A DNA stretch of 64,000 nt from Bacillota bacterium (lineage in GTDB: Bacteria > Bacillota > UBA4882 > JBLNCG01), in the NCBI GenBank assembly GCA_050260475.1, contig JBLNCG010000028.1, positions 64,283-128,282 on the forward strand. The letters are read 5' to 3'. The notes under the pieces are model-generated. The model was not told where the DNA came from and made no database searches. It saw only the letters and a list, made by a program, of their open reading frames with translations. Within the stretch, counting starts at the first letter, position 1, and each line of letters begins with the position of its first letter. Made by a program: the position numbers and the translations under genes. Below are positions 3,899 to 45,389 of the stretch, one piece after another.

Positions 3899-4019
3899 TA
3901 AACAGAACCGTGAATCCCGTTTGGGAATAAAAGCTGTATGTTGATTCACGTCAGCTTATTTTTATTACTTCGTTCGCTGACGTGAACGACTACTTGAAAA
4001 TTGCATAAAAGAACCGGGG

Positions 4020-4255
4020 CGCTTATTCTTGGAAGCTTAATAGGGAAACAGGTGCGATTCCTGTGCGGTCCCGCCACTGTAAGGGGGAGCCTCCTGGTAA
4101 ATGCCACTTTCCGTCACTATTGGCGCAGTATTCCAAGTGCCGGGGGGGAAGGCGCCAGGTGGACGAAGAACCCGAGTCAGGAGACCTGCCCCGGTTTCGC
4201 TGCGGCAAATGGGCCGCTGCACATCTCACAACCTACGGACGATAGGAGGGTGAAA
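4020..4255 (+). promoter_or_regulatory. cobalamin (AdoCbl) riboswitch aptamer
   Basis: Conserved core AATAGGGAA...GGTGCGATTCC...GCGGTCCCGCCACTGTAAGGGGGAG with the B12 box GCCACTG. Located in the leader of a TonB-dependent BtuB-like receptor gene. Confidence 0.85.
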
Positions 4256-4276: not shown

Positions 4277-4312
4277 TGATCCGGATCCGGGTTAAAGGCA
4301 TTTTTTATTAAA
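4277..4312 (+). terminator. riboswitch expression-platform intrinsic terminator
   Basis: GCCTTTGATCCGGATCCGGGTTAAAGGC stem (contains the palindrome CCGGATCCGG) followed by CATTTTTTATT. Confidence 0.6.
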
Positions 4313-4428
4313 GGCAATTGCGTTTTACCTTGATTCAAGGTCTTGCCATTAAATATAGTGTATGGCTACCATTAGGCTATCGATATTTCGCGGCAAGGCG
4401 TAAAATTATCACAACAACGCAAATTGCT
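4313..4428 (+). repeat. intergenic repeat family A, copy 1 (TIR-bounded, ~116 bp)
   Basis: AAGGCAATTGCGTT..TACC...GTCTTGCC...ATTAGGCTATCGATATTT...GGCAAGG...CAACAACGCAAATTGCT. Ends are inverted repeats of each other (GCAATTGCGTTGTTA / TAACAACGCAATTGC). An inner 7-bp inverted repeat GTCTTGC/GCAAGAC is also present. Four more copies occur in the window. Confidence 0.8.
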
Positions 4429-4482
4429 TATTCACACTACAAAATCATTCTTTTTAAAAATGACTGAATGGAGGCAAGGTAT

Positions 4483-7876: not shown

Positions 7877-7905
7877 ATATCCTGTCAAGGGAAAATGCTT
7901 GACAA

Positions 7906-8019
7906 GGCAATTGCGTTGTTACCTTAATTCAAGTCTTGCACTTAAATATAATGTATAATTACTATTAGGCTATCGATATTTTAGCAAGACGTAAAATCAT
8001 CATAACAACGTATATTGCT
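7906..8019 (+). repeat. intergenic repeat family A, copy 2
   Basis: Same architecture as copy 1: AAGGCAATTGCGTTGTTACC...GTCTTGC...ATTAGGCTATCGATATTT...GCAAGAC...CATAACAACGTATATTGCTC. Confidence 0.8.
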
Positions 8020-8057
8020 CCTTGAAAGGATTTTTTCAACCGGGCCGGTGAAAAAAC

Positions 8058-8411
8058 TTGGAAGAAATGGTGCGCATCAATTTGATGCTTGACTTTTACG
8101 GGGATCTGCTTACCAAGAAGCAGCGGCGCATTTTGGAAAGCTATTACGCCCTCAACTTTTCCCTAGTGGAAATTGCCCAGGAGGAGAGGAGCAGCCGCCA
8201 GGCGGTGCATAATTTGCTGCACCGGGGCGTTCAGATTCTGGAGGATCTTGAGACAAAACTTTCCATGGTCCGTGATCACCTTGCCAGGAAACAGAGCCTT
8301 AAGAAGGCATGCTCGGAAATAAATAATATCCTGGCGATTTGCCCGGATAAAATCAAACCCGGACTGTTTGAGTTGATGCAGAGGCTTGAGCGGTTGGCTG
8401 AAAAGGAATAA
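8058..8411 (+). CDS. ylxM: UPF0122 DNA-binding protein YlxM (SRP operon)
   Basis: Helix-turn-helix sigma-70 region 4-like protein with the conserved YlxM N-terminus (LDFYGDLLTKKQRRILE). Immediately upstream of ffh. Confidence 0.8.
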   Translation: MEEMVRINLMLDFYGDLLTKKQRRILESYYALNFSLVEIAQEERSSRQAVHNLLHRGVQILEDLETKLSMVRDHLARKQSLKKACSEINNILAICPDKIKPGLFELMQRLERLAEKE

Positions 8412-8462
8412 TCATTTGGTCCTTCTGCTTGATGCAGGCGGGGCCGGGGAAAGGCCGGAGAA

Positions 8463-9788
8463 ATGTTTGAACAGTTGGCGCGAAAAATTCAGGAAGCCTT
8501 GAAGTTTTTAAGCAACCGGGGCAAGCTTTCGGAAAAGGATTTGGACGATGCTTTGCGCCTAATCCGTCTGTCCTTGCTGGAAGCTGATGTGAATTATAAA
8601 GTGGTTAAGGATTTTATTCAGAGGGCAAGGGAGAAGGCCCTGGGGAAAGAGGTTTTGGAAAGCCTGACCCCGGGCCAGATGGTGGTGAAAATCGTCCGGG
8701 ATGAATTGGTTTCATTAATGGGTGGAACCAACCAGGGTTTGTCGTATTCAGTTCAATCTCCGCTGGTCGTGATGATAATCGGCCTTCAGGGATCCGGGAA
8801 AACCACTACCTGCGCCAAGCTGGCCCGGCTCTTAAAACAGTCCGGAAAGCGTCCGTTGCTGGTGGCGGCGGATATTTACCGGCCGGCTGCGGTGGATCAG
8901 CTAAAGATACTGGCTGAACGCCTTGATGTATTGTTTTACGAATCGCGGAGGAAGGCTCCGCCGCAAATTGCCTCGGAAGGTTTGAACGAAGCGCGCAGGA
9001 AAGCGGCGGATACGGTGATCATTGATACGGCGGGCCGCCTTCATATCGATGGGGAAATGCTGTCCGAACTTCAGGAAATCGCCAATAATGTCAATCCAGG
9101 TGAAATCTTGCTGGTGGCGGATGCCATGACCGGCCAGGATGCGGTGGCGGTGGCGCAAGGATTTCAATCCGTCCTGAACCTGACAGGCGTCATCCTTACC
9201 AAAGTGGACAGCGATGCCAGAGGCGGCGCCGCTCTTTCCATGCGATCAACCCTGGAAAAACCCATCAAATATATCGGTGTAGGGGAAAAGCTGGAGGCTT
9301 TGGAGCCTTTCCATCCTGAGCGCATGGCGTCACGCATTCTGGGCATGGGCGATATCCTTACTCTTATCGAGAAGGCCGAAACCGCCATGAATGCGGAGCA
9401 GTCGAAAAAAATAGCCCGGAAATTGAGCAGGGCGGATTTCACCCTGGAAGATTTTCTTGATCAGTTGGAACAGATGAAAAAAATGGGTCCCTTGGAGGAT
9501 TTGCTTAAAATCATCCCTGTTCTGCCCGGTAACGATTTGGCTGCGCTCAAGGTGGATGAAAAGGACCTCGTCCGTCTTGAAGCGATCATCCGTTCCATGA
9601 CTCCGGGAGAGCGGGCCAATCCGCAGATTATCAATGCAAGCCGTAGAGAGAGAATCGCCAGGGGAAGCGGTACATCCATCCAAGATATTAATAGATTATT
9701 GAACAGGTTTGAACAAAGCCGTAAAATGATCAAGGAATTCGCCGGAATAAGCAAAAAGTCCGGGAAGAAAAGACCGTTCCCTTTTTAA
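8463..9788 (+). CDS. ffh: signal recognition particle protein Ffh
   Basis: SRP54 N domain, G domain (GLQGSGKTTT, DTAGR, TKVDG) and Met-rich M domain. Confidence 0.95.
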   Translation: MFEQLARKIQEALKFLSNRGKLSEKDLDDALRLIRLSLLEADVNYKVVKDFIQRAREKALGKEVLESLTPGQMVVKIVRDELVSLMGGTNQGLSYSVQSPLVVMIIGLQGSGKTTTCAKLARLLKQSGKRPLLVAADIYRPAAVDQLKILAERLDVLFYESRRKAPPQIASEGLNEARRKAADTVIIDTAGRLHIDGEMLSELQEIANNVNPGEILLVADAMTGQDAVAVAQGFQSVLNLTGVILTKVDSDARGGAALSMRSTLEKPIKYIGVGEKLEALEPFHPERMASRILGMGDILTLIEKAETAMNAEQSKKIARKLSRADFTLEDFLDQLEQMKKMGPLEDLLKIIPVLPGNDLAALKVDEKDLVRLEAIIRSMTPGERANPQIINASRRERIARGSGTSIQDINRLLNRFEQSRKMIKEFAGISKKSGKKRPFPF

Positions 9789-9823
9789 AATAAAATTTCC
9801 CTAATCGAAAGGAGGTGACAAGT

Positions 9824-10084
9824 TTGGCGGTCAGAATCAGATTGAACCGGATTGGCGCAAAGAAACAGCCGCATTACCGTTTGGTGGTCGCAGATTCCCG
9901 TTCAGCCCGCGACGGACGTTTTATCGATATACTCGGATATTACAACCCCATCACGGAACCCATTGAATTCAAGGTGGATCGGGAAAAAGTGCTGGATTGG
10001 ATTAAAAAAGGCGCCCAGCCCTCGGATACCGCAAAGAGGCTATTGGAAAAGGCCGGCGTATTAACCAAGGGAACCGCGAAGTAA
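9824..10084 (+). CDS. rpsP: 30S ribosomal protein S16
   Basis: TTG start 5 nt after [33 protein letters not shown] matches the S16 N-terminus. Confidence 0.9.
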
Positions 10085-10130
10085 GCCGATCGAAGCCTGT
10101 AAATATAGGCATAATGTCGATGTAAAAGGA

Positions 10131-10370
10131 GTGGTGCTGATGAAGGGGCTGGTAGAGGTTCTGGCAAAAGCCCTGGTCGATCAGCCGGATGAGGTGAGTG
10201 TGGTGGAAGTGGAGGGAGAAACCAATATTCTGGTGGAGATTAAAGTTGCTCCCGAGGATGTGGGAAAAATCATCGGAAAACAGGGACGCATCATCCGTGC
10301 CATACGCACTCTGGCTAAATCCGTAGCCCAAAAGCAGAGAAAGAACGTCTCTGTGGAATTGTGGCAATAA
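10131..10370 (+). CDS. KH-domain RNA-binding protein (UPF0109, YlqC-like)
   Basis: GXXG KH motif (IGKQGRIIRAIR). Conserved position between rpsP and rimM. Confidence 0.8.
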   Translation: MVLMKGLVEVLAKALVDQPDEVSVVEVEGETNILVEIKVAPEDVGKIIGKQGRIIRAIRTLAKSVAQKQRKNVSVELWQ

Positions 10371-10408
10371 AAGAGATTAAAACGGTGAATACTGGCAAGG
10401 GGAATTGC

Positions 10409-10921
10409 ATGTCAGCGTTTGTCCGTCTGGGTAAAATCCTCGGTCCCCACGGCATCAAGGGCCAATTGAAGCTCTGGCCGTACACTTCCTTTTTGGAGCG
10501 CTTCCAGCATTTGGACGAGGTGTTCCTAAAAAAAGGGGACGAAACCAGGATTTTTCATTTCGGCGAATTTACTTCAACGCATAAGGGTGCTCTGATATCG
10601 CTTAAGGAATGCAGGGATCGATCGACAGCTCAACAATTATCCGGCTGTCATTTATGCGTACCCGAAGAACAGCGGAGTAAACTGCCGGAGAACTATTATT
10701 ATCATGATGATCTGATCGGTCTTTCTGTTTATGAACCGGACGGAACCCGTGTCGGAAAAGTGCGTTATATATATGAACGTGGCATTCAAGATTGCCTCTG
10801 CATTGCCGATGAGACGGGCTGCGAATTTCTGGTTCCTTTCCACCGAAATTTCATTGTCAGTGTCGATCAGGAGGGGAAAAAAATTATTATCCGATCTATC
10901 CCCGGTTTGCTGGATAGGTGA
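10409..10921 (+). CDS. rimM: ribosome maturation factor RimM
   Basis: GKILGPHGIKGQLKL PRC-barrel signature. Start taken at ATG 10409 (AAGGGGA RBS). The ORF is open from 10361. Confidence 0.8.
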   Translation: MSAFVRLGKILGPHGIKGQLKLWPYTSFLERFQHLDEVFLKKGDETRIFHFGEFTSTHKGALISLKECRDRSTAQQLSGCHLCVPEEQRSKLPENYYYHDDLIGLSVYEPDGTRVGKVRYIYERGIQDCLCIADETGCEFLVPFHRNFIVSVDQEGKKIIIRSIPGLLDR

Positions 10922-10927
10922 GCGGAG

Positions 10928-11677
10928 ATGGAAATCGATATTTTGACGCTTTTCCCTGAGATGTTTGCCGGCCCGTTTTCCTGTAGTGTTATTAAAAGAG
11001 CGTTAGATAAAGGATTGTTTCAGATAAGGCTCCATGACATCCGGGACTTCGCGCTCGATAAACACCGGAGCGTGGATGATACGCCATACGGCGGCGGTTC
11101 GGGGATGGTGATGAAGCCAGAGCCCGTTTATTTTGCCTTACAGGTCGTCAAGAAGATTGCGAATTCGCCTGCCAGAGTGATTCTCTTGACCCCCCAGGGA
11201 GAAAGACTGAACCAGAAAATTGCGCAAAAGTTGTCAGTCTTGCCGCGCCTGATTTTGATTTGCGGGCATTATGAAGGTTTTGATGAACGCATTAGGGAAC
11301 ACATGGCGGATCAAGAAATATCCGTCGGAGATTACATCCTGACCGGCGGGGAATTGCCGGCGATGGTTCTTGTTGATGCTGTAGCGCGCCTGATTCCGGG
11401 TGTACTTGGAAATACGGAGTCCGCTTATGCGGAGTCATTTTTCGACGGCCTCCTGGAATATCCTCAGTACACAAAACCTAGCGTTTTCCAAGGTTGGCCG
11501 GTTCCCGACATTCTGCTTCAGGGGGATCACGGTAAAATCGCCCGGTGGCGCCGCGAGCAGGCCCTTATCAGGACCTTGAGGCGCAGGCCTGATTTATTGG
11601 AAAATATTAATCTGGCCCCGAATGAAAGGAAAAAACTGGAAGAAATAAAAAATAAAGATGCTGAAGTGGAAGAGTAA
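10928..11677 (+). CDS. trmD: tRNA (guanine37-N1)-methyltransferase TrmD
   Basis: SPOUT knot motifs ([23 protein letters not shown]). Confidence 0.9.
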
Positions 11678-11689
11678 AGGAGGACTAAT

Positions 11690-12061
11690 ATGGATTTATT
11701 AGGTATGGTAGAAAAGGACTATCAAAAAAACGCCCTGCCGGACCTAAATCCCGGAGCGGTAGTCAGGATTCATGTAAAGGTGAAAGAAGGCAACCGCGAA
11801 AGAATTCAGGTTTTTGAAGGGACGATTATTGCGAAAAAAGGCGGAGGATTGAAAGAAACATTCATAGTCAGGAAGGTTTCCCAGGGAGTAGGCGTGGAAA
11901 GGACTTTTCCGGTTCATTCGCCGAGTATTGAAAAGATAGAAGTGGTCAAAGAAGGCAGGATTAAGCGCGCCAAATTATATTACTTGCGCAAGCGTTCCGG
12001 GAAGTCCGCGCGTATCGTGGAAAAACGCGCTGCCGCGGCGGAGGCTGACATAGAAGAATAG
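11690..12061 (+). CDS. rplS: 50S ribosomal protein L19
   Basis: Conserved L19 sequence ([27 protein letters not shown]). AAGGAGG RBS. Confidence 0.9.
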
Positions 12062-12139
12062 GGGCATCTATTCGTGACGTATTTTTCCGGTATTCTTCTT
12101 TTAGGTTAACGAAACTTCGTCTTGACCGGGGGAAATAGC

Positions 12140-12715
12140 ATGTCGGAGTGGAAAAAAGCCCGTGTGGAACTTTATCCTAAATCATGTTTCCGGGAAAACC
12201 TGGAATCCATCGCAATTGCCATCACGTTTACTGTTTTTGTCATGATCTTTGTTTTACAAGCGTGCATGGTTGATGGGCATTCCATGGAGCCTACATTGCA
12301 CGATCGGGAAAGGTTATTTGTGGACAAGATAACCTATCAGATTCTTCCTTTGAAAACCGGCGATATCGTGGTTTTTCACCCTCCGCTGGAAACAAAAAAC
12401 CGCTTCATCAAAAGGGTGATAGGTACTCCCGGAAATTATGTGGAGATTAAAAACGGAGATGTATACATCAACGGGAAACCGCTTCATGAACCTTATCTGA
12501 AGGATCAGGATTTTTTACCCGGTAATTATGCATCGCAAGTAATTCCTGCGGATAAATATCTCGTGCTGGGGGATAACCGCAATAACAGCAACGACGGACG
12601 CTGGTTCGGCCTGATCGGGAAAAAAGCCATCGTGGGCAGGGCGGTATTTGTTTTTTGGCCCTTTTCAAGGATGGGATTTATTAAATATCCTCATTATTAT
12701 AGAACCGGTGATTAA
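12140..12715 (+). CDS. lepB: signal peptidase I (second copy)
   Basis: Catalytic SMEPT, KRVIG and GDNRNNS boxes with an N-terminal TM. Confidence 0.8.
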   Translation: MSEWKKARVELYPKSCFRENLESIAIAITFTVFVMIFVLQACMVDGHSMEPTLHDRERLFVDKITYQILPLKTGDIVVFHPPLETKNRFIKRVIGTPGNYVEIKNGDVYINGKPLHEPYLKDQDFLPGNYASQVIPADKYLVLGDNRNNSNDGRWFGLIGKKAIVGRAVFVFWPFSRMGFIKYPHYYRTGD

Positions 12716-12725
12716 ATGCATCTAA

Positions 12726-12823
12726 CCGTTTTGGAAAATCGCGATATCTCTAGGCCGTACCAATTAAGGTACGCTCGGCGTGCCTAAGTTAAGGCACGTT
12801 CCTTTAACGCGTTTTGCGATTGC
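12726..12823 (-). repeat. intergenic repeat family C, copy 1 (~98 bp, TIR-bounded)
   Basis: Ends ATCGCGATTTTCCAAAACGG / AACGCGTTTTGCGATTG are inverted repeats of each other. Two internal perfect hairpins: GTACC-aattaa-GGTAC and GTGCCT-aagtta-AGGCAC. The reverse complement aligns with copy 2 at 44713-44784. Confidence 0.7.
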
Positions 12824-13029
12824 TCAACTTTTACACTTTGATTTTAATGCAGCAAAATCAATATTTTAGGGATATTAAATTTGAAAAAATCGTTAAAAGA
12901 TCGTCTTTTCTTGTCCCGCAAGATCATTTGGATATTTTTCATTGCTGATTTTGATTTTTTTGTTTTGCATTGCAAGAACAGAAAGATATGACTTTGCGCC
13001 GGGCTAAATTGATATGCGAAATTTGAGTG
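12823..13029 (+). repeat. intergenic repeat family B, copy 1 (~207 bp)
   Basis: Starts CTCAACTTTT, ends CGAAATTTGAGTG (imperfect TIR). Contains the perfect 24-bp palindrome TTGATTTTAATGCAGCAAAATCAA (12838-12861) and a second palindrome TCTTGTCCCGCAAGA. Aligns with 16192-16349. Confidence 0.7.
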
Positions 13030-13073
13030 ATTGATAAGCTTAATTACAGGTTTAATAATATGTGCGGGAGGGG

Positions 13074-13925
13074 ATGTCGGTTAAGAGAATTCAATGGTTT
13101 CCCGGACATATGGCCAAGGCGTTCAGGGATTTTAAAAAAGTCTTCAGCCTAGTACACCTGATTGTGGAGGTAGCGGACGCACGTATTCCCATTACCAGCC
13201 GCAATCCGGAATTAGGGCATCTGGCTTCACACAAACCCCGCATTCTTCTTCTAAATAAAATGGATCTGGCGGATCCGCGCATCACTGTCCAATGGCATGA
13301 ATTTTGGGAAAAAGAGGGGATAAATGTTTTTCCTGTAAATGCCAGATTGCAGCAGGGTTTCCTGGAAGTTACGAGAAAGATCAAAACTCTGCAGGTTTCC
13401 AATCCTTCCCCCTTCAGACTGATGATTATCGGATTGCCCAATACCGGGAAATCGTCGGTTTTGAATAGTTTATGTAAAAACGGACGCTGTAAGACCGGGA
13501 ATAAGCCGGGGACAACCAGGGGAAAACAGTGGATCACCACGCCGTACGGGTGGGAACTTCTGGATACGCCGGGACTGATGCAACCTGGAGAGATGACGGC
13601 ACAAGCGGGCGTAAAACTGGCTGCAGCCGGCGTTATTCCTGATGATCTGCTGGGATTGGAAGAATTGGCCCTGGATCTGATTCGTGTTCTTAAGGAGAAG
13701 TATGCTTTAGGGGATCAAAAGGCGGTATGCCTCAATCAAGAGGCGGACGAATATGCAATTCTAAAGGGATTCGGCCTGAAGCAAGGATGTCTTGCAAAGC
13801 GGGGTGAAGTGGATTTGCACCGCACCGCGGGAATTTTTATGCGGGATTTTCGCAACGGAAGGCTGGGGCGGTTTACTCTCGAGTGGCCGCAGGACTTTTA
13901 TCCTTCAACAAGCGTAGAAAAATAA
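13074..13925 (+). CDS. rbgA: ribosome biogenesis GTPase A (RbgA/YlqF)
   Basis: IQWFPGHMAKA N-terminus. Circularly permuted GTPase motifs (LLNKMDL, GLPNTGKSS, DTPG). Confidence 0.85.
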   Translation: MSVKRIQWFPGHMAKAFRDFKKVFSLVHLIVEVADARIPITSRNPELGHLASHKPRILLLNKMDLADPRITVQWHEFWEKEGINVFPVNARLQQGFLEVTRKIKTLQVSNPSPFRLMIIGLPNTGKSSVLNSLCKNGRCKTGNKPGTTRGKQWITTPYGWELLDTPGLMQPGEMTAQAGVKLAAAGVIPDDLLGLEELALDLIRVLKEKYALGDQKAVCLNQEADEYAILKGFGLKQGCLAKRGEVDLHRTAGIFMRDFRNGRLGRFTLEWPQDFYPSTSVEK

Positions 13926-14970
13926 CTCCGCCGACGATATTGTTGGTATGAAAACTAATCAGGCGCCAGAGGGTGATGATTACTCCCAGCATATTTTTAG
14001 GAACATAAAGCTGACGGAAAATGGAGAGGAATCCTAATTCCACCACCCCGCTTCCCCCAGGAATAGGCAGGTAGGCAGCGACAAAAATGAATAGGTATTG
14101 AAGCAGGATGGAACTGGCGAAGTTCACTTTAAATCCCAGAAAATACAAGATAACAGGGGCAATGGAAAAAAATGAGAGCCAAAAAAGGCTGGAAAGGATC
14201 AAAATCAATGCAATTAGCCCCTTATTTTTATGAAAAAGCGCCGTGAGGCAAAGGTGGAATTCATCCAGCGCTTTGAAAAAGGCCTCCAAGTTGGTTTCCA
14301 GGAATATGTTTTTTCCCCGATCGGACGCGTCGCATTCTGCGGAAGAGCATTTTTGTTTTTCTTTACTGCATTTAAACAGCGCGAGAAATGTTAAGAGCAG
14401 GTTTTTTGCCGCATGCGGTCTGCTGAGAAAGAAGATTAAAAGTCCGCTGATCACCGCGCCTAGGATTATTAAAATAATCTGGATGAATAAAGCGAGATGC
14501 AGTACTTTCGGAAAAATAAACAGCAGCACGGGGGCTCCCAGCGTGAAAACAAGGGTGCCTGTGGCGATGCGCGCCGTAACGACGGCACTGGCTTTTCCCA
14601 GGGACATCCCCTCCTTGTGCAGAAGGTAAACCTGGGTAGGGGCACCTCCCGAAGTATATGGAGTCATATTTCCTGTAAAAAAAGTAGCCAGGTTGATTAA
14701 AATGATTTTATATAATGGAAGGTTTTCCTCAAGTAAAGTGGAAATGACTTTTATGCGCATACCTTCAACCAGCCACGACAGGGCAAGCATTAAAAGACCG
14801 GCGGCGGCAGCCCAGCATAACTTGAAGGTGTTCAATGCGCGCAGAACTTTTAAGGTGTCTCCGCCTGAACTGTAAAGGTTGACGGCTAGCAGGCATAAGA
14901 AGCTCAAACCCACGGTAACGGTAATACCGCGTTGAATGGTTCTGCGGCTAATGCTGTTTCGGCTGATCAT
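13873..14970 (-). CDS. UPF0104 / flippase-like (LPG_synthase_TM family) integral membrane protein
   Basis: About 8 predicted TM helices. The conserved C-terminal IPGGSGVVELGF motif is typical of the family. 3' end overlaps the rbgA 3' end by 53 bp (convergent). Confidence 0.65.
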   Translation of the reverse strand: MISRNSISRRTIQRGITVTVGLSFLCLLAVNLYSSGGDTLKVLRALNTFKLCWAAAAGLLMLALSWLVEGMRIKVISTLLEENLPLYKIILINLATFFTGNMTPYTSGGAPTQVYLLHKEGMSLGKASAVVTARIATGTLVFTLGAPVLLFIFPKVLHLALFIQIILIILGAVISGLLIFFLSRPHAAKNLLLTFLALFKCSKEKQKCSSAECDASDRGKNIFLETNLEAFFKALDEFHLCLTALFHKNKGLIALILILSSLFWLSFFSIAPVILYFLGFKVNFASSILLQYLFIFVAAYLPIPGGSGVVELGFLSIFRQLYVPKNMLGVIITLWRLISFHTNNIVGGVIFLRLLKDKSPAATRE

Positions 14971-15256
14971 GTTTCATGTTCCCACCTTTTCGGCAATGTC
15001 AAAAACAGGTCCTATATGGGATAAAAAATGGATTGTGATATTTATCAAACTCTTGCCATACCATAAAATTCAGTTCTATTTCATATTTTATTGCTATTTT
15101 CGCCCTGATGTGCCTTTCTCCTGCAGCAAGATCTTCCATCCGCGCCGCAGTCCGGCGCCCAATCTTAAGTACCTGACATATATGCGCTTACGATTAAATG
15201 CCATAATTATTCTCAATCCAATCGTAATTTCATGGCAGAACTGGGAAGGCGGTTTT

Positions 15257-15937
15257 ATGCAAGAATCCGCATTACACAATTTATACAACCGGATGTTTCC
15301 GGGTTTAAAAACCAAACTTCACGAGGAGAAAAAACGCCTTCATCTGATGTTGAGTTATGAACGCCGCTGCCTCAGGAGGGGTTACTCCAAAGTGGCGGGG
15401 ATTGATGAGGCTGGCAGGGGCCCGCTGGCCGGCCCGGTGATAGCCGCGGCGGCGATTTTGCCTTCCGGCATCAAGCCATATGGCCTTAATGATTCCAAGC
15501 AAATGACCAAAGGACAACGGGAGTATCTGTACCAGCATCTGCTGGATTCCGGAGCTGCCATAGCATGGGCCGGTGTGGATGCGGAAGAAATCGATGTTCT
15601 CAACATTTACCGGGCTACCATAAAAGCCATGCGATTAGCGTTGGAAAAACTCATCCCTCAACCGGACTTTTTACTAATAGACGGAATGGGGATCGATCTG
15701 GGAATGCCTGGAGAGGCCATTGTAAAAGGAGATGCGAAATCGTTGTCCATTGCCGCGGCTTCTGTAGTGGCAAAAGTTGCCCGGGATCGGATTATGGAGG
15801 AATACGCCAGTGTTTATCCTGAATACGGTTTTGATAAACATAAAGGCTATCCGACCCCTGAACACTACCGTATCCTGCAAAAGCTGGGCCCTTGCAAAAT
15901 ACACCGGTTGTCTTTCCGGCTTAAGGAAAAGGCTTAA
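15257..15937 (+). CDS. rnhB: ribonuclease HII
   Basis: GIDEAGRGPLAGPV catalytic motif. Start chosen at ATG 15257 (GGGAAGGCGG RBS). The long upstream in-frame extension lacks homology. Confidence 0.85.
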   Translation: MQESALHNLYNRMFPGLKTKLHEEKKRLHLMLSYERRCLRRGYSKVAGIDEAGRGPLAGPVIAAAAILPSGIKPYGLNDSKQMTKGQREYLYQHLLDSGAAIAWAGVDAEEIDVLNIYRATIKAMRLALEKLIPQPDFLLIDGMGIDLGMPGEAIVKGDAKSLSIAAASVVAKVARDRIMEEYASVYPEYGFDKHKGYPTPEHYRILQKLGPCKIHRLSFRLKEKA

Positions 15938-15941
15938 ACAG

Positions 15942-16058
15942 GGCAATCTGCGTTGTTAAGATAATTTTACGCCTTGCCACGGAATATCGATAGCCTAATA
16001 GTAGCCATATACTATATTTACTGGCAAGACCTAGTATTAAGGTAAAAAAGCAATTGCC
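15942..16058 (-). repeat. intergenic repeat family A, copy 3 (inverted orientation)
   Basis: The reverse complement aligns along the full length with copies 1 and 2 (…AAGGCAATTGC…ATTAGGCTATCGATATT…CAACGCAGATTGCCC). Confidence 0.8.
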
Positions 16059-16162
16059 TTAACAGGTAAAACTTTAAACAAAAAAAAAGGGTATTAAGTT
16101 TTGGCAACAAACGCCGATTTTAAGATTAAGACCAGCCGAACGATCTATAACATCCCCCCCAT

Positions 16163-16187
16163 AACCCCGCGGAAGCGGGGTTTTTTC
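16163..16187 (+). terminator. rho-independent terminator
   Basis: CCCCGC-ggaa-GCGGGG followed by TTTTTT. Confidence 0.75.
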
Positions 16188-16191
16188 CGAA

Positions 16192-16349
16192 CTCAACTTT
16201 CGCACCTTGATTTTAATGCGGCAAAATCAATATTAAATTGAAAAAATCGTTAAAACATTCGTCTGTTCTTGTTACGCAAGATCATAATGTTTTGAATTTA
16301 TATTAATTGATATGATTTTGCTGCGCTCTAATCGTATACGAAAGTTGAG
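16192..16349 (+). repeat. intergenic repeat family B, copy 2 (~158 bp)
   Basis: CTCAACTTTCG...CGAAAGTTGAG 11-bp perfect TIRs. Contains the palindrome TTGATTTTAATGCGGCAAAATCAA (16207-16230) and TCTTGTTACGCAAGA. Confidence 0.75.
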
Positions 16350-16361
16350 TCGCGAATATAA

Positions 16362-17522
16362 TCATATGGATTTAAATACCGCGATGCAATTGTTGCCTAC
16401 CACTACCAGATAGCCGAGGCCGATGGAAGCATGTCTGGAATATTCATTATATTTTTCCAACAGGACTGATTCATATAACTGTTTGTCCGCTGAATATATT
16501 TCTCCGGAAATCAAGCGGCGTCCCGCCAAAGGGTCAAAAGAGCGGTAATAAACCATTCCGTTGGCGCTGAATATATAACTGGTGTTGCCGCCGGCGACGG
16601 CATTCCAGTGTATTTTTCCAGTCAAGGCATCCAGTGCGAAAATTTTGCCTGTGGTGCAGTGAGCTATCAGGTAATTCTGATATAGGGTGTAATGATTGAT
16701 ATTTCCCTCTAACCGCATCTGCCAAATGGTTTTTCCGGTAGTTTCACTGAGGGCGTGAATTAGATAATCCGAAGTCCCGACAAATACCATCCCCTGGGAA
16801 AGGACAGGATGGTTTGCGCCCCGGACCTTTGTTTTCCATATGATATCCCCGTTTTTAGGGGATAATGCGATCACTTCCGTAAATGAGCCGCTTATGTCGT
16901 TAGAGCTTACTGAAGTGAAACAGATGATATCGTTGTTTACCGCGAATGCGTTGGAGTTAACGCCCTGATATACTTTTTTCCAAATTGTGTCGCCATTGCT
17001 TGCATTAAGCGCAAAGAAATCAATACCGGAGGATCTTTTTCCCATCAGATATAGTTTATCATGGCAAAGCAGTGGAGGATAATGGTAATCGCTTAAAAAA
17101 GTCTTAGCCCAGAGTTCCTTTCCATTAAAGGCGTCATAGCAAAAAAGCGTGCCCTTTTTAGTTAATACTATAAGTTTTCCCTGATAAAATACAGGTTCAA
17201 GAAAACTTTCGAAATATGAAGTTTCCCAAGATACTTTGCCGGTCGCGATATTATAAGCGATCAGTTCCTGATTTTGCGTCAGTATGAAAAATTTGCCTCC
17301 GCCGATGATCGGTTCGGAACAAAAAACAGGGTTGTCGACGCGGGGCGGAATGCTCCAAACGAAAGTATAAGGAACCTTCGCGGATTTTTCGCCGGTATTC
17401 GCCCTGGTGCCGGAACCGTCGCAGCCGAACATCGGCCAGTTATCGGCGGATTCTGTCGCTGCCATGCCCGATCCTGTCAGCAATAGTAAAAGGAACAATA
17501 GTGGCGAGATTTTTTTATACAT
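16362..17522 (-). CDS. secreted PQQ-repeat beta-propeller protein (BamB-like)
   Basis: Signal peptide MYKKISPLLFLLLLLTGSGMAA. Repeated YAL/YAxD-G-W beta-propeller blades. Perfect RBS AAGGGAGG 7 nt before ATG 17522. Confidence 0.7.
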   Translation of the reverse strand: MYKKISPLLFLLLLLTGSGMAATESADNWPMFGCDGSGTRANTGEKSAKVPYTFVWSIPPRVDNPVFCSEPIIGGGKFFILTQNQELIAYNIATGKVSWETSYFESFLEPVFYQGKLIVLTKKGTLFCYDAFNGKELWAKTFLSDYHYPPLLCHDKLYLMGKRSSGIDFFALNASNGDTIWKKVYQGVNSNAFAVNNDIICFTSVSSNDISGSFTEVIALSPKNGDIIWKTKVRGANHPVLSQGMVFVGTSDYLIHALSETTGKTIWQMRLEGNINHYTLYQNYLIAHCTTGKIFALDALTGKIHWNAVAGGNTSYIFSANGMVYYRSFDPLAGRRLISGEIYSADKQLYESVLLEKYNEYSRHASIGLGYLVVVGNNCIAVFKSI

Positions 17523-17608
17523 GGCCGGACCTCCCTTCGACGACACATATATTCTGCTTTGTTCGATATAATCCTGCTCAAGCCAATGCTTTTCTATAAA
17601 AACTTGTA

Positions 17609-23428: not shown

Positions 23429-23446
23429 ATGGTCGTTCACGCCAGC

Positions 23447-23499
23447 TATCGATATTTGGTGGCAAGACGTAAAATTATCATAACAACGCAAATTGCTCT
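23447..23499 (+). repeat. intergenic repeat family A, copy 4 (3' half only, truncated)
   Basis: GCTATCGATATTTGGTGGCAAGACGTAAAATTATCATAACAACGCAAATTGCTC matches the 3' ~55 bp of family A. The 5' arm is absent. Confidence 0.7.
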
Positions 23500-23522
23500 A
23501 AGAGGGGAAAGAGACCTTTCAG

Positions 23523-24263
23523 ATGGCTTTGCTCAAAGATGAGGGGATTGTGGTGCGCACCCGGCCAATAAATGAAGCAGACCGGATTGTCACGATTTTA
23601 AGCGCAAAACACGGAAAAATAGAAGCGGTGGCGAGGGGGGCGCGGCGTCCGCGCAGCAGGTTCGTGGGCAGCACGCTTCCCTTCACGCACGTGGTTTTCG
23701 CTGTTTTTGAAGGCAAAGGCATGCATGATTTGAGTCAGGCGGAAATCATATCTTCTTTTCCTATTTTACGGAACGATTTGCTCAAGCTGGCTTACGCCTC
23801 GTACTGGATGGACCTATTGGAGAATCTTTTGGAGATTCAGCAAAGCGCCGAAGACGTTTTCAATTTGACCGCTAAAGCCTTAAAAGAATTATCCGAAGTG
23901 GATAAACCCGCATTGCTATCCAGACTGTTCGAATTACGCCTTGCGGATTACCTGGGGTGGAAGCCTGAACTGGAAGCATGTGTGCGGTGCGGGAAAACGC
24001 TGGACGCCCCGCCCTATTTTTTCTCCGCTTCCATGGGCGGGATGGTATGCCAGGCATGCAGGGATGGCTCCACCGGAGAAGTGCCGGTTTTGGAAGAAAC
24101 ATGGCAAACACTGAACAATCTGCAGAACAACAAGTCAAACCGCTGGCCCCAGAGCATCTCCCGGAGAGCCGAAAAAGAAATGGCGGGTTTATTGCATGAT
24201 TTTTTCCGGCTTCAGACCGGCAGGGCTATAAAGTCTTTTTCTTTTCTTCAAGAGGTGGAGTAA
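23523..24263 (+). CDS. recO: DNA repair protein RecO
   Basis: OB-fold N-terminus and C-terminal zinc finger (CVRCGK...CQAC). Confidence 0.85.
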   Translation: MALLKDEGIVVRTRPINEADRIVTILSAKHGKIEAVARGARRPRSRFVGSTLPFTHVVFAVFEGKGMHDLSQAEIISSFPILRNDLLKLAYASYWMDLLENLLEIQQSAEDVFNLTAKALKELSEVDKPALLSRLFELRLADYLGWKPELEACVRCGKTLDAPPYFFSASMGGMVCQACRDGSTGEVPVLEETWQTLNNLQNNKSNRWPQSISRRAEKEMAGLLHDFFRLQTGRAIKSFSFLQEVE

Positions 24264-28719: not shown

Positions 28720-28798
28720 CCGGTCCAGCGAGGCCGGGAAGGGGCGGCGGGAAAAAATTTCCTTACGCTCCTTCGAAATATGAGAAGGAGCTTTTTTA
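28720..28798 (+). promoter_or_regulatory. PyrR-binding attenuator 2 (pyrB leader)
   Basis: PyrR box GGTCCAGCGAGGCC, then terminator CTCCTTC-gaaatatga-GAAGGAG-CTTTTTTATT. Confidence 0.65.
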
Positions 28799-28996
28799 TT
28801 AGCCGGTGATGAAACTTTTAGTTTCCGGCACTCAACTCTAAATGAACGATTATAGCGCATTTATAACAAATATTTAAGGTTGATTGCCGGACGGTTAGAT
28901 GGATTTAATCGCCGTTTTATATCAGGAGCCATTTGCCATGAGCCTCCTGGAGGCGGCAAATAGGAAATCAGGGAAACGGTATAGAAAAAAGGTGGG

Positions 28997-41118: not shown

Positions 41119-42303
41119 TTACATATTTCCAGGCCTTTCTCCTATTTTTACTTTGAAGATTTTTACCGTATTATTTCTAATCAAAAGGATTTGCACGGTT
41201 TGCCCGACTTTCATGGAACCGACGATTTTCTGCAATTGTTCAATGCTTTTGATTTTTATGCGGTTGATTTCAAGAATAATGTCCTGCGGTTGTATTCCGG
41301 CTTTATCCGCAGGGCTGTTCTGGATCACGTTACCCACAAAGACACCCTGCCCTGGCTTGACGTTAAAGTAGTCGGCAATCTCCTCGGTCACGGGGCTCAT
41401 CGAAATCCCCAGCCAGGGGTGGGAAACTTTCCCCTTTTCTCGCAATTCGGGCAGAATATCCTTGGCAGTATTAATGGGTATGGCAAAACCAATTCCTTGC
41501 GCATACGGGATGATGGCAGTGTTTATCCCGATAACTTCGCCCTGGATGTTGATCAGCGGTCCGCCGCTGTTTCCATAATTGATCGCCGCATCGGTCTGGA
41601 TCAGGTTGGTTGGAATATCCGGCTGTTGTATTTCCCTTTGCAGGCCACTGATAATGCCAGCGGTAACAGTATTGGCGTATCCGAAGGGATTGCCGATGGC
41701 CATCACCCACTGGCCCGGCTGTAAATCGCCGGAATCACCCAGTTTGACATGGGGCAAATCGTTGCCATCGATTTTCAGAAGCGCCAGATCATTTAATTTA
41801 TCCATCCCTTTCACAATGGCCTTATATTCTTTTTTATTGGAAAGGATTACTTTGATCTCATCAGCGCCGGAAACCACATGGGCATTGGTTAGGATATAAC
41901 CGTCTGGCTCGATGAGAAAACCGGAACCCTGTGCGGTTTGTTTTTCAGTCCGCGGCTTGATGGGTTTTTGCTCCTGTTCGAAAAATCGATCAAAAAAATC
42001 AAAGGGATTGATATAATTGGACACCGGTATTTCCTTGGATGTCTTGATAAAAACAACCGCGGGCGCAACGCTTTCCTGAATCCTTACGAAGCTCTCCGTA
42101 CCTCCCGAAAGCCGGTAAGCAGCCGGATCGATTTTTCCGGATTGCCTGGGTTCCGCTGCATACCGCTTCAGCAAGTCCTCGTTTGTTCTCAGTCCGATGG
42201 CGAGAAAAATCCCGGAGGTAACGACAGCCGATATGACAGCAACTGCCAGATACGGAAGAAATAATTTCACCGCGCTCAGAAGTTTCCTTTTATCCATGGG
42301 CAT
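41119..42303 (-). CDS. htrA: HtrA/DegP-family serine protease with PDZ domain
   Basis: N-terminal TM anchor. Trypsin-like catalytic motifs (TNAHVV, GNSGGPL) and a C-terminal PDZ. Confidence 0.85.
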   Translation of the reverse strand: MPMDKRKLLSAVKLFLPYLAVAVISAVVTSGIFLAIGLRTNEDLLKRYAAEPRQSGKIDPAAYRLSGGTESFVRIQESVAPAVVFIKTSKEIPVSNYINPFDFFDRFFEQEQKPIKPRTEKQTAQGSGFLIEPDGYILTNAHVVSGADEIKVILSNKKEYKAIVKGMDKLNDLALLKIDGNDLPHVKLGDSGDLQPGQWVMAIGNPFGYANTVTAGIISGLQREIQQPDIPTNLIQTDAAINYGNSGGPLINIQGEVIGINTAIIPYAQGIGFAIPINTAKDILPELREKGKVSHPWLGISMSPVTEEIADYFNVKPGQGVFVGNVIQNSPADKAGIQPQDIILEINRIKIKSIEQLQKIVGSMKVGQTVQILLIRNNTVKIFKVKIGERPGNM

Positions 42304-44712: not shown

Positions 44713-44784
44713 GATTTCGGAAAACGCGTTAAAGGAGCGTGCCTTAACTTAAGCATGGCAGGTTTCGCGATTCTCCGAAATCGG
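44713..44784 (+). repeat. intergenic repeat family C, copy 2 (~72 bp)
   Basis: GATTTCGGAAAACGCGTT...GTGCCTTAACTTAAGCATGGC...TTTCGCGATTCTCCGAAATCGG. Ends form ~17-bp inverted repeats. Aligns with the reverse complement of 12726-12823. Confidence 0.7.
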
Positions 44785-44982
44785 CAGATGTAGGTTCTCA
44801 TAGAAGCGTTGTGATAAGTCGAACTTACCCACGTTTTCCCCTCTCTTCTGCAGAATAAAGGGAGATAGCAAGGCTTCAAAGGTTCAGGGTTACCCTCTTT
44901 ACAAAAGAGATAGTAAGGGTGAGTTTTTTACAGCGCTTATAGAGTGAACCCGGTAAGAACTGATTTGCAGGGAGGGTTATTA

Positions 44983-45180
44983 TTGGAAAACCATTTAAAA
45001 AAAGTGGATTTGCATTGCCGTTATATCCTGGTAAGCGCCATTGCCAAAAGAGCCAGACAGATCATGATGGACAGTCTGAAAAACGGAGACGACAAGGCCA
45101 TGCGTGCAGTCTACCTCGCCCAGAAGGAAATCGAACAAGGAAAACTGCATGTGGAGCCTGGTGCGGCCCTTTATTCATAA
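44983..45180 (+). CDS. rpoZ: DNA-directed RNA polymerase subunit omega
   Basis: LLENHLKKVDLHCRYILVSAIAKRARQI matches the RpoZ core. TTG start 6 nt after CAGGGAGGG. Confidence 0.8.
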   Translation: MENHLKKVDLHCRYILVSAIAKRARQIMMDSLKNGDDKAMRAVYLAQKEIEQGKLHVEPGAALYS

Positions 45181-45237: not shown

Positions 45238-45358
45238 AGAGCAATTTGCATTGTCATTATAATATTACGTCTTGCCGTAAATATCGATAGTCTAATGGCA
45301 GGCCGTACACTATATTTAATGGCACGACCCAGCATTAAAGTAACAACGCAATTGCCTT
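45238..45358 (-). repeat. intergenic repeat family A, copy 5 (inverted orientation)
   Basis: The reverse complement aligns full-length with copy 1 (AAGGCAATTGCGTTGTTAC...CCATTAAATATAGTGTA...CATTAGACTATCGATATTT...GGCAAGACG...CAAATTGCTCTGC). Confidence 0.8.
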
Positions 45359-45389
45359 AAGCAAAAAACATACCGCACTATCTTGGCAG

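Follow-up and report, generated by a model that had tools for sequence, protein, structure and literature searches.

The spacer between lepB and rbgA is probably a nest of two non-autonomous, palindromic, MITE-like repeats bearing terminal inverted repeats (TIRs). The DNA analysed, referred to here as the window, is a 64-kb stretch from an uncultured, deep-branching member of the Bacillota, and the spacer holds one copy each of two repeat families found in it, family C (copy C1) and family B (copy B1). Judging from the arrangement of their parts, B1 is most likely nested inside C1 rather than adjacent to it. Such a feature is of an ordinary type and only modestly interesting. The repeats do account for a 358-nt gap in a conserved ribosome-biogenesis operon as repeat-derived, with no hidden gene, riboswitch, or dedicated promoter.

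The gene order of the cluster, ffh-rpsP-KH-rimM-trmD-rplS-lepB-rbgA...rnhB, is a conserved arrangement in Bacillota. lepB (signal peptidase I; 12122-12715, + strand) was recognized as an open reading frame with a Pfam Peptidase_S26 domain (E 8.6e-51) that stops at residue 179 of 197, 18 residues short of the stop codon. rbgA (ylqF; 13074-13925, + strand) encodes a protein identical to NCBI MGE5557926.1, which is annotated 'ribosome biogenesis GTPase YlqF' of 'MAG: Bacillota bacterium' and has the same start, ATG 13074. The spacer measures 358 nt to this annotated ATG and 346 nt to an in-frame GTG at 13062; an initial sequence-only reading had the gene context right, and its figure of 346 nt counts to the upstream GTG. 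The spacers on the 5′ side of lepB are short (rimM-trmD 6 nt, trmD-rplS 12 nt, and rplS-lepB 60 nt). A search of 5.8 billion proteins found a next-best RbgA homologue that was only 44-46% identical, indicating that the organism is phylogenetically isolated. The two relatives that are nearer by RbgA identity carry different genes 5′ of rbgA. In a distant relative (L007) with the order rplS-lepB-lepB-rbgA-rnhB, the lepB-rbgA spacer is 19 nt long, and this comparison, which concerns spacer length and gene order and not sequence, supports the idea that the spacer in the window was expanded by repeats. On the 3′ side, rbgA is followed by a convergent gene for an LPG_synthase_TM-family membrane protein, an arrangement that the window shares with those relatives whose RbgA is closest (44-46%). 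The 3′ ends of the two genes overlap by 53 nt in the window (13873-13925) and by 95 nt in L008 (4001-5894), and lie 89 nt apart in the relative locus L005 (3141-5098).

What does the spacer contain? All of its open reading frames are 47 codons or shorter, indicating no coding potential in C1 or B1. A known structured RNA or riboswitch was considered as its content and rejected, the best Rfam 15 match (E-value mode) scoring 20.9 bits against a gathering score of 45. At the Rfam 15 gathering threshold, the whole window gave just a cobalamin riboswitch and a tRNA. A blastn search of the spacer against plasmids and phages returned just a 38-nt chance match. Instead, most of the spacer has partners elsewhere in the window. 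The sequence-only reading had proposed that copies of two unrelated repeat families with TIRs fill the spacer almost completely. That both are interspersed repeats is borne out by the similarity of each copy to a second one (B1 to B2, E 4e-14; C1 to C2, E 1e-7).

Family B is represented by two full copies. B1 (12823-13028, + strand) is a 206-nt element of 31% GC, with a left TIR at 12823-12835 (CTCAACTTTTACA) and a right TIR at 13015-13027 (reverse complement CTCAAATTTCGCA). B2 (16191-16351, + strand) is a 161-nt imperfect palindrome whose TIR is a perfect 12-nt ACTCAACTTTCG. Aligned end to end, the two are identical at 137 of 156 aligned positions, with several indels, and their similarity is found by both nhmmer (E 4e-14) and blastn within the window (E 2e-20). 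They have a common TIR consensus, CTCAACTTTCGCA, from which the ends of B1 differ by 2 and 1 mismatches over 13 nt. With DNA parameters, B2, the best-preserved copy, forms one long imperfect hairpin (-28.5 kcal/mol, z -4.8), and a single strand of B1 folds no better than its shuffles (z -0.1). B1 is the more eroded, degenerate copy. B2 is located between the convergent rnhB and a PQQ-repeat gene, and it starts 5 nt past the T-run of a terminator-like hairpin at 16164-16186 (CCCCGCGGAAGCGGGGTTTTTT).

Family C has an arm of ~45 nt, TATTATAGAACCGGTGATTAAAT...ATTTCGGAAAATCGCG, that is inverted at both ends of C2, C3, and a further locus, D. C2 (44684-44806, - strand) is a 123-nt copy without B, lying between gmk and rpoZ, 3 nt past the gmk stop. 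C1 and C2 share a 39-nt core with 92% identity (44717-44755 on the C2 side; nhmmer E 1e-7 to 6e-7). C3 (27338-27433), found through a 17-nt exact match, is a short copy of 96 nt in which both arms are present and the centre is deleted; it lies 20 nt past the stop of the upstream gene and carries a 10-nt perfect inverted repeat, ATTTCGGAAA. D (28797-28921), found through a 27-nt match to the lepB stop region, has C-like outer arms at 28801-28815 (+) and 28903-28917 (-) around a 57-nt mini-palindrome, although the inverted match of these arms was reached by 29 of 2000 shuffles. The arm motif AACCGGTGATTAAAT occurs 8 times in the sequence scanned with at most 3 mismatches, versus 2.8 expected, and five of the eight occurrences fall in C1, C2, C3, and D (two in D). 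The core of C1 (12751-12801) consists of two tandem 25-nt hairpin units, …TTAAGGTACGCTC and …TTAAGGCACGTTC; C2 has one. On the other side of C2, the ~180 nt up to the rpoZ start (44807-44983) gave no open reading frame, Rfam match, or repeat partner in the window, and contain a 14-nt inverted repeat (44892-44905 / 44964-44977).

The extent of C1 is central to how the spacer is understood. The left arm, core, and inner right arm of C1 occupy 12695-12822, as determined from an arm profile match at 12695-12744 and from similarity to C2. Its outer arm is TATTATAGAACCGGTGATTAAATGCATCTAACCGTTTTGGAAAATCGCG, and the segment ends in CGCGTTTTGCGATTG with no right outer arm between the core and B1. In other words, C1 starts at about 12695 and not at 12726, as first thought. 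With a start at 12695, the last six lepB codons (YYRTGD) and the TAA stop are supplied by the left arm of C1 and are thus repeat sequence, a point of use for the annotation of this gene. C1 also continues past B1 instead of ending at 12823. Its right outer arm, ATAAGCTTAATTACAGGTTTAATAAT, is located at 13034-13060 as the inverted partner of 12695-12720, and its end lies 14 nt before the rbgA start codon, just upstream of a Shine-Dalgarno sequence, GGGAGGGG (13066-13073). Evidence for this arm comes from complementarity: 13041-13060 pairs with 12695-12714 at 16 of 20 positions, and when the 45 nt separating B1 from rbgA were shuffled 5000 times, one shuffle did as well. Likewise, a Smith-Waterman comparison of the right and left arms gave 17/21, reached by 4 of 2000 shuffles. 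In a multiple alignment, the right arm of C1 lines up collinearly with those of C2, C3, and D. The arm was weak in an arm-profile search of the whole window (E 3.8); it gains significance only from a prediction of its position and strand, and that prediction was formed after reading the sequence.

Further evidence for nesting is found at the junctions. GATTG is present at both sides of B1, at 12818-12822 and 13029-13033, and can be read from the sequence as a candidate target-site duplication. The chance probability of such a flanking pair is ~1%, given a freedom of +/-1 nt in the boundaries. A 5-bp target-site duplication is suggested by B1 and not by the family as a whole, because B2 shows no comparable duplication: there is no convincing match between its flanks (CCGA/CGCG). 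Removal of B1 together with one GATTG in silico left 159 nt that fold into one long hairpin (-46.5 kcal/mol, z -3.3), in which 12695-12720 and 13036-13060 together form the outer stem. Neither C2 nor C3 is interrupted at the position where B1 sits in C1, and both may be viewed as paralogous 'empty sites'. The presence of C1 sequence and GATTG on both sides of B1 indicates that B1 is probably nested in C1, not beside it. The sequence-only reading had described the two elements as abutting, which was wrong, since the right arm of C1 lies beyond B1. Of the explanations it had offered, the best fit is insertion into or next to palindromes, since C1 sequence and a 5-bp direct repeat flank B1 on both sides.

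The literal form of that earlier model is that C1 ends, or is truncated, at 12822, with B1 beside it and an unrelated native spacer following. It could draw on the C1-C2 core similarity, which stops near 12822, and on the E of 3.8 for the arm profile at 13029-13058 in the window-wide search. Against it, the segment that follows B1 is complementary to the left end of C1 and aligns collinearly with the right arm of each other C-type copy (C2, C3, and D); GATTG is found on both sides of B1; and a C1 ending in ...CGCGTTTTGCGA would be left without a right terminus. The side-by-side arrangement is therefore highly improbable.

Are B and C truly separate families? One possibility is that C arms and a B module belong to one mosaic family in the style of BIME, BOX, or NIME elements, and that B was never inserted into C. 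C2 and C3 would then be deletion derivatives that lack the B module, and B2 would be a solo module. Locus D speaks for such a model, as it consists of C-like arms around a B-like mini-core. Its interior (28826-28890), which opens with ACTCAAC, is similar to the right end of B2 (in reverse complement). As strong a similarity was seen in 5 of 3000 shuffles and in not one of 4000 genomic 65-mers taken at random. A 20-nt inverted repeat in D, TCCGGCACTCAACTCTAAAT (85%), crosses the junction of C-like and B-like sequence, and no direct repeat is visible at this junction. Palindromic symmetry that runs across the junction without a direct repeat keeps the reading as a single modular element alive. 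The lack of a target-site duplication at B2 points in the same direction, as does a B internal motif, GAAAAAATCGTTAAAAGA (12885-12904, also 16240-16257), which resembles the inner arm of C, GGAAAACGCGTTAAAGGA (12796-12815), at 14/18 positions by hand count (nhmmer E 0.06). This likeness may reflect a common module, a site for a host factor common to both families, or chance. In a comparison with the A-Bn-C module structure of BOX-type elements, C1 has two hairpin units versus one in C2, D is mixed, and B2 stands alone, all among few copies. However, B1 has TIRs of its own and 5-bp direct repeats at its flanks, it sits asymmetrically in the right arm of C1 and off the palindrome centre, and C2 and C3 are continuous across the point of insertion. 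B2 also occurs solo, with no significant C-like arms. Nesting of B2 in such arms was examined as a candidate and rejected: the inverted repeat of its flanks was reached by 730 of 2000 shuffles, and the C-arm similarity had p ~0.02-0.1. On balance, a single mosaic family is unlikely. As for whether B and C occur together elsewhere, as the sequence-only reading had asked, D provides one such case, a B-like core in C-like arms, and B2 does not.

The positions of the family C copies raise another question: are these repeats kept by the host? Three C copies start close to where the upstream co-directional gene ends (C1 overlaps the stop codon, C2 starts at +3, and C3 at +20 nt), and D directly follows a terminator-like hairpin. 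This placement recalls REP elements and could reflect either an insertion preference or selection. The repeats might accordingly be host-retained structural RNA or DNA motifs, similar to REP-like 3′ hairpins, with C1 and B1 tuning the ratio of lepB to rbgA expression. The start of C1, C2, and C3 within 20 nt of an upstream stop and the position of D are compatible with such a role, as are the stable C hairpins (C2 core z -4.06; restored C1 z -3.3). The search for a terminator-like site in the lepB-rbgA spacer found none, making read-through into rbgA plausible, and small repeats are known to attenuate or destabilize operon transcripts (PMC3049150). On the other hand, the orientation of C2 relative to its upstream gene is opposite to that of C1. 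The copies differ by large indels and are too few for covariation testing, and they match no Rfam family even at permissive thresholds. Their length of 100-200 nt greatly exceeds that of REP palindromes, which have 20-40 nt and are rich in G+C, whereas the B copies are AT-rich. Proximity to stop codons may also simply mark sites that tolerate insertions. A retained regulatory motif is thus distinctly unlikely.

A candidate rbgA promoter had been noted just after B1. The promoter-like site, TTGATA-17-AATAAT (13031-13059, + strand), has 10/12 consensus matches and the highest score of all such sites in the scanned 5 kb. The end of its -10 box lies 14 nt short of ATG 13074, which would give an 8-nt leader. 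It coincides with the C1 right arm and the repeat junction. The number of such sites in the 5 kb, nine, equals the number expected from shuffles (9.0 +/- 3.1), and the site lies entirely in the terminal arm of C1. These results argue against the earlier proposal, and a dedicated rbgA promoter was rejected as having no support beyond chance. TATAAT-like hexamers that face outward are present at each terminus of C, which may therefore bring a promoter of its own. The absence of a terminator in the spacer makes read-through from lepB equally plausible.

How might the spacer have arisen? The probable sequence of events starts with the insertion of C1 (~155 nt without B1; spanning 12695-13060) at the 3′ end of lepB. 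B1 would later have been inserted into the right arm of C1 by cut-and-paste or copy-in transposition with a 5-bp staggered cut, and a transposase encoded elsewhere in the genome would have supplied the activity in trans. Together, the two insertions would have enlarged a short operon spacer, which has ~20 nt in a relative, to its present 358 nt. In a read-through transcript from lepB, a long composite hairpin would then precede rbgA and might attenuate or stabilize the message.

The spacer had also been called an insertion hotspot, which a comparison with the rest of the window does not show. According to a crude gene map, a copy of family A, B, or C lies in most spacers longer than ~180 nt. 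Repeats seem to be what makes long spacers long in this window, and the co-occupancy of B and C may reflect only which spacers tolerate insertions. The third of these families, family A, comprises five copies (4301-4428, 7904-8020, 15940-16062, 23442-23500, and 45238-45368). They are bipartite palindromes of ~125 nt, made of two related half-units of ~55 nt in inverted orientation with ends AAGGCAATTGCGTTGTTA; the copy at 23442-23500 is a single half-unit. Five of the five match the pattern TTACGYCTTGC-N3-6-AATATCGATAG. The first copy (4301-4428) follows the cobalamin riboswitch (4000-4207, 106.5 bits) and precedes the next long open reading frame, which starts at 4468; it parts the aptamer from the reading frame that the aptamer presumably controls. 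The third copy (A3) starts 3 nt past the rnhB stop, in a 424-nt convergent spacer (region 15938-16190 on) that holds both A3 and B2. Because A3 comes right after rnhB, the terminator-like hairpin at 16164-16186 lies ~227 nt downstream of that gene.

The 64-kb window contains two full B copies and one mini-B, and four C-type copies. It appears that closer copies exist elsewhere in the genome. Indirect evidence for this comes from independent Logan contigs, assembled from run SRR24035587, which match the window with 100% identity. One of them, L002, covers 7910-12778, and another, L001, covers 12963-16219. Each of these four contig ends falls inside a repeat (A2, C1, B1, and B2); repeats make up 2.2% of the window (P ~2.5e-7). 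The part absent from both contigs, 12779-12962, is the C core and the conserved left half of B. Contig ends inside repeats are what a de Bruijn assembler is expected to produce when closer copies are present elsewhere in the genome. The repeats break short-read assemblies of this organism, but not always: C2 and A5 are both traversed without a break by a Logan contig of 46 kb, and the end inferred for that contig, near 23629, lies outside the repeats.

Searches for these families beyond the window gave little. The B core pattern had no match in genome_contigs, metagenome_contigs, or viral_contigs, collections that evidently lack the source genome. The C core pattern had none in metagenome_contigs or viral_contigs. 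The A pattern had none in viral_contigs and one isolated match in the GTDB genomes of genome_contigs (a Holosporaceae MAG), probably by chance. A 910-aa six-frame concatenation of C1/B1, B2, and C2 found nothing at E <= 1 among 5.8 billion proteins. A Pfam scan of six proteins flanking the repeats revealed no transposase. The 394-aa reading frames at 16362-17546 and 41119-42303 were considered as transposases and rejected, as they encode a PQQ beta-propeller protein and an HtrA-like protease instead.

The three B-type sequences suggest a further, more tentative model, in which family B prefers to insert into or beside DNA hairpins. These would be the C palindromes at 12823 and 28830 and the terminator-like hairpin at 16191. 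All three of the three sequences lie in or beside a hairpin, which fits insertion into palindromes, but three cases do not establish it, and such a preference is at present doubtful. If it were true, it would imply structure-directed targeting by a transposase in a deep-branching lineage of Bacillota whose long spacers are largely built from repeats.

How do these elements compare with known systems? REP/BIME and ERIC elements of enterobacteria are alike in being interspersed extragenic palindromes that lie just past stop codons and may influence mRNA stability or attenuation. However, REPs are G+C-rich units of 20-40 nt tied to RAYT transposases, whereas the B and C elements are 100-200 nt long with long TIRs, B is AT-rich, and no RAYT gene was seen. 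The individual copies measure 96-206 nt (B1 206, B2 161, C1 ~155 without B1, C2 123, and C3 96 nt). Against a window mean of 48%, their GC content is 30-31% for the B copies and 42-46% for the C copies; by segment, B1, B2, and the C1 right arm are AT-rich, with 22-31%, and the C1 core and C2 are near the mean, with 44-46%. The difference between two hairpin units in C1 and one in C2 is a variation in module number like that of boxB in BOX elements.

Some insertion sequences are known to target palindromes: IS1397 and ISKpn1 insert into BIME/REP, and elements of the IS110 family insert into REP. Family B is alike in that two loci have B-type sequence within a palindromic element and a third has it directly behind a terminator hairpin, which would fit targeting directed by structure or palindromes. 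Unlike these insertion sequences, B is non-autonomous and has conventional TIRs; the comparison involves only three cases, and no common target is evident (GATTG at B1, CCGA/CGCG at B2).

The closest likeness in kind is to bacterial MITEs such as Correia of Neisseria, RUP of Streptococcus pneumoniae, Nezha of cyanobacteria, and Chunjie of Geobacter. Like these, the B and C copies are non-coding elements in the range of 100-210 nt, well within the size of a MITE (<~500 bp). They have TIRs (12 nt and perfect in B2, 16/20 to 17/21 in the C1 outer arms) and a potential to form a hairpin over the whole element. They occupy intergenic sites, including one inside an operon and over a gene 3′ end. They also show a short flanking direct repeat (B1) and diverged copies with internal indels. 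They differ in that B and C have no sequence similarity to a known element or insertion sequence in the collections searched, and in that a target-site duplication is present at one copy: GATTG/GATTG flanks B1, there is no match at B2, and none is clear at any C copy. B and C are new MITE-like families from an uncultured, deep-branching MAG; the sequences and the lineage are new, while the kind of feature and its nesting are already known. Together with family A, they add three families of small repeats from a lineage without close sequenced relatives.

Nesting itself has a well-described parallel. In pneumococci, BOX, RUP, and SPRITE repeats occur in clusters, where one repeat may be inserted in another (Croucher et al. 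2011, PMC3049150), and this pattern has been attributed to a common site preference or to regional tolerance (PMC3049150). The pneumococcal repeats belong to another phylum-level lineage, have other sequences, and were studied in a population of complete genomes versus one 64-kb window here. The likeness is that different repeat families share spacers and insert into each other. The lepB-rbgA spacer thus provides another case of small repeats nesting and, if confirmed genome-wide, could be used to weigh palindrome targeting against insertion tolerance.
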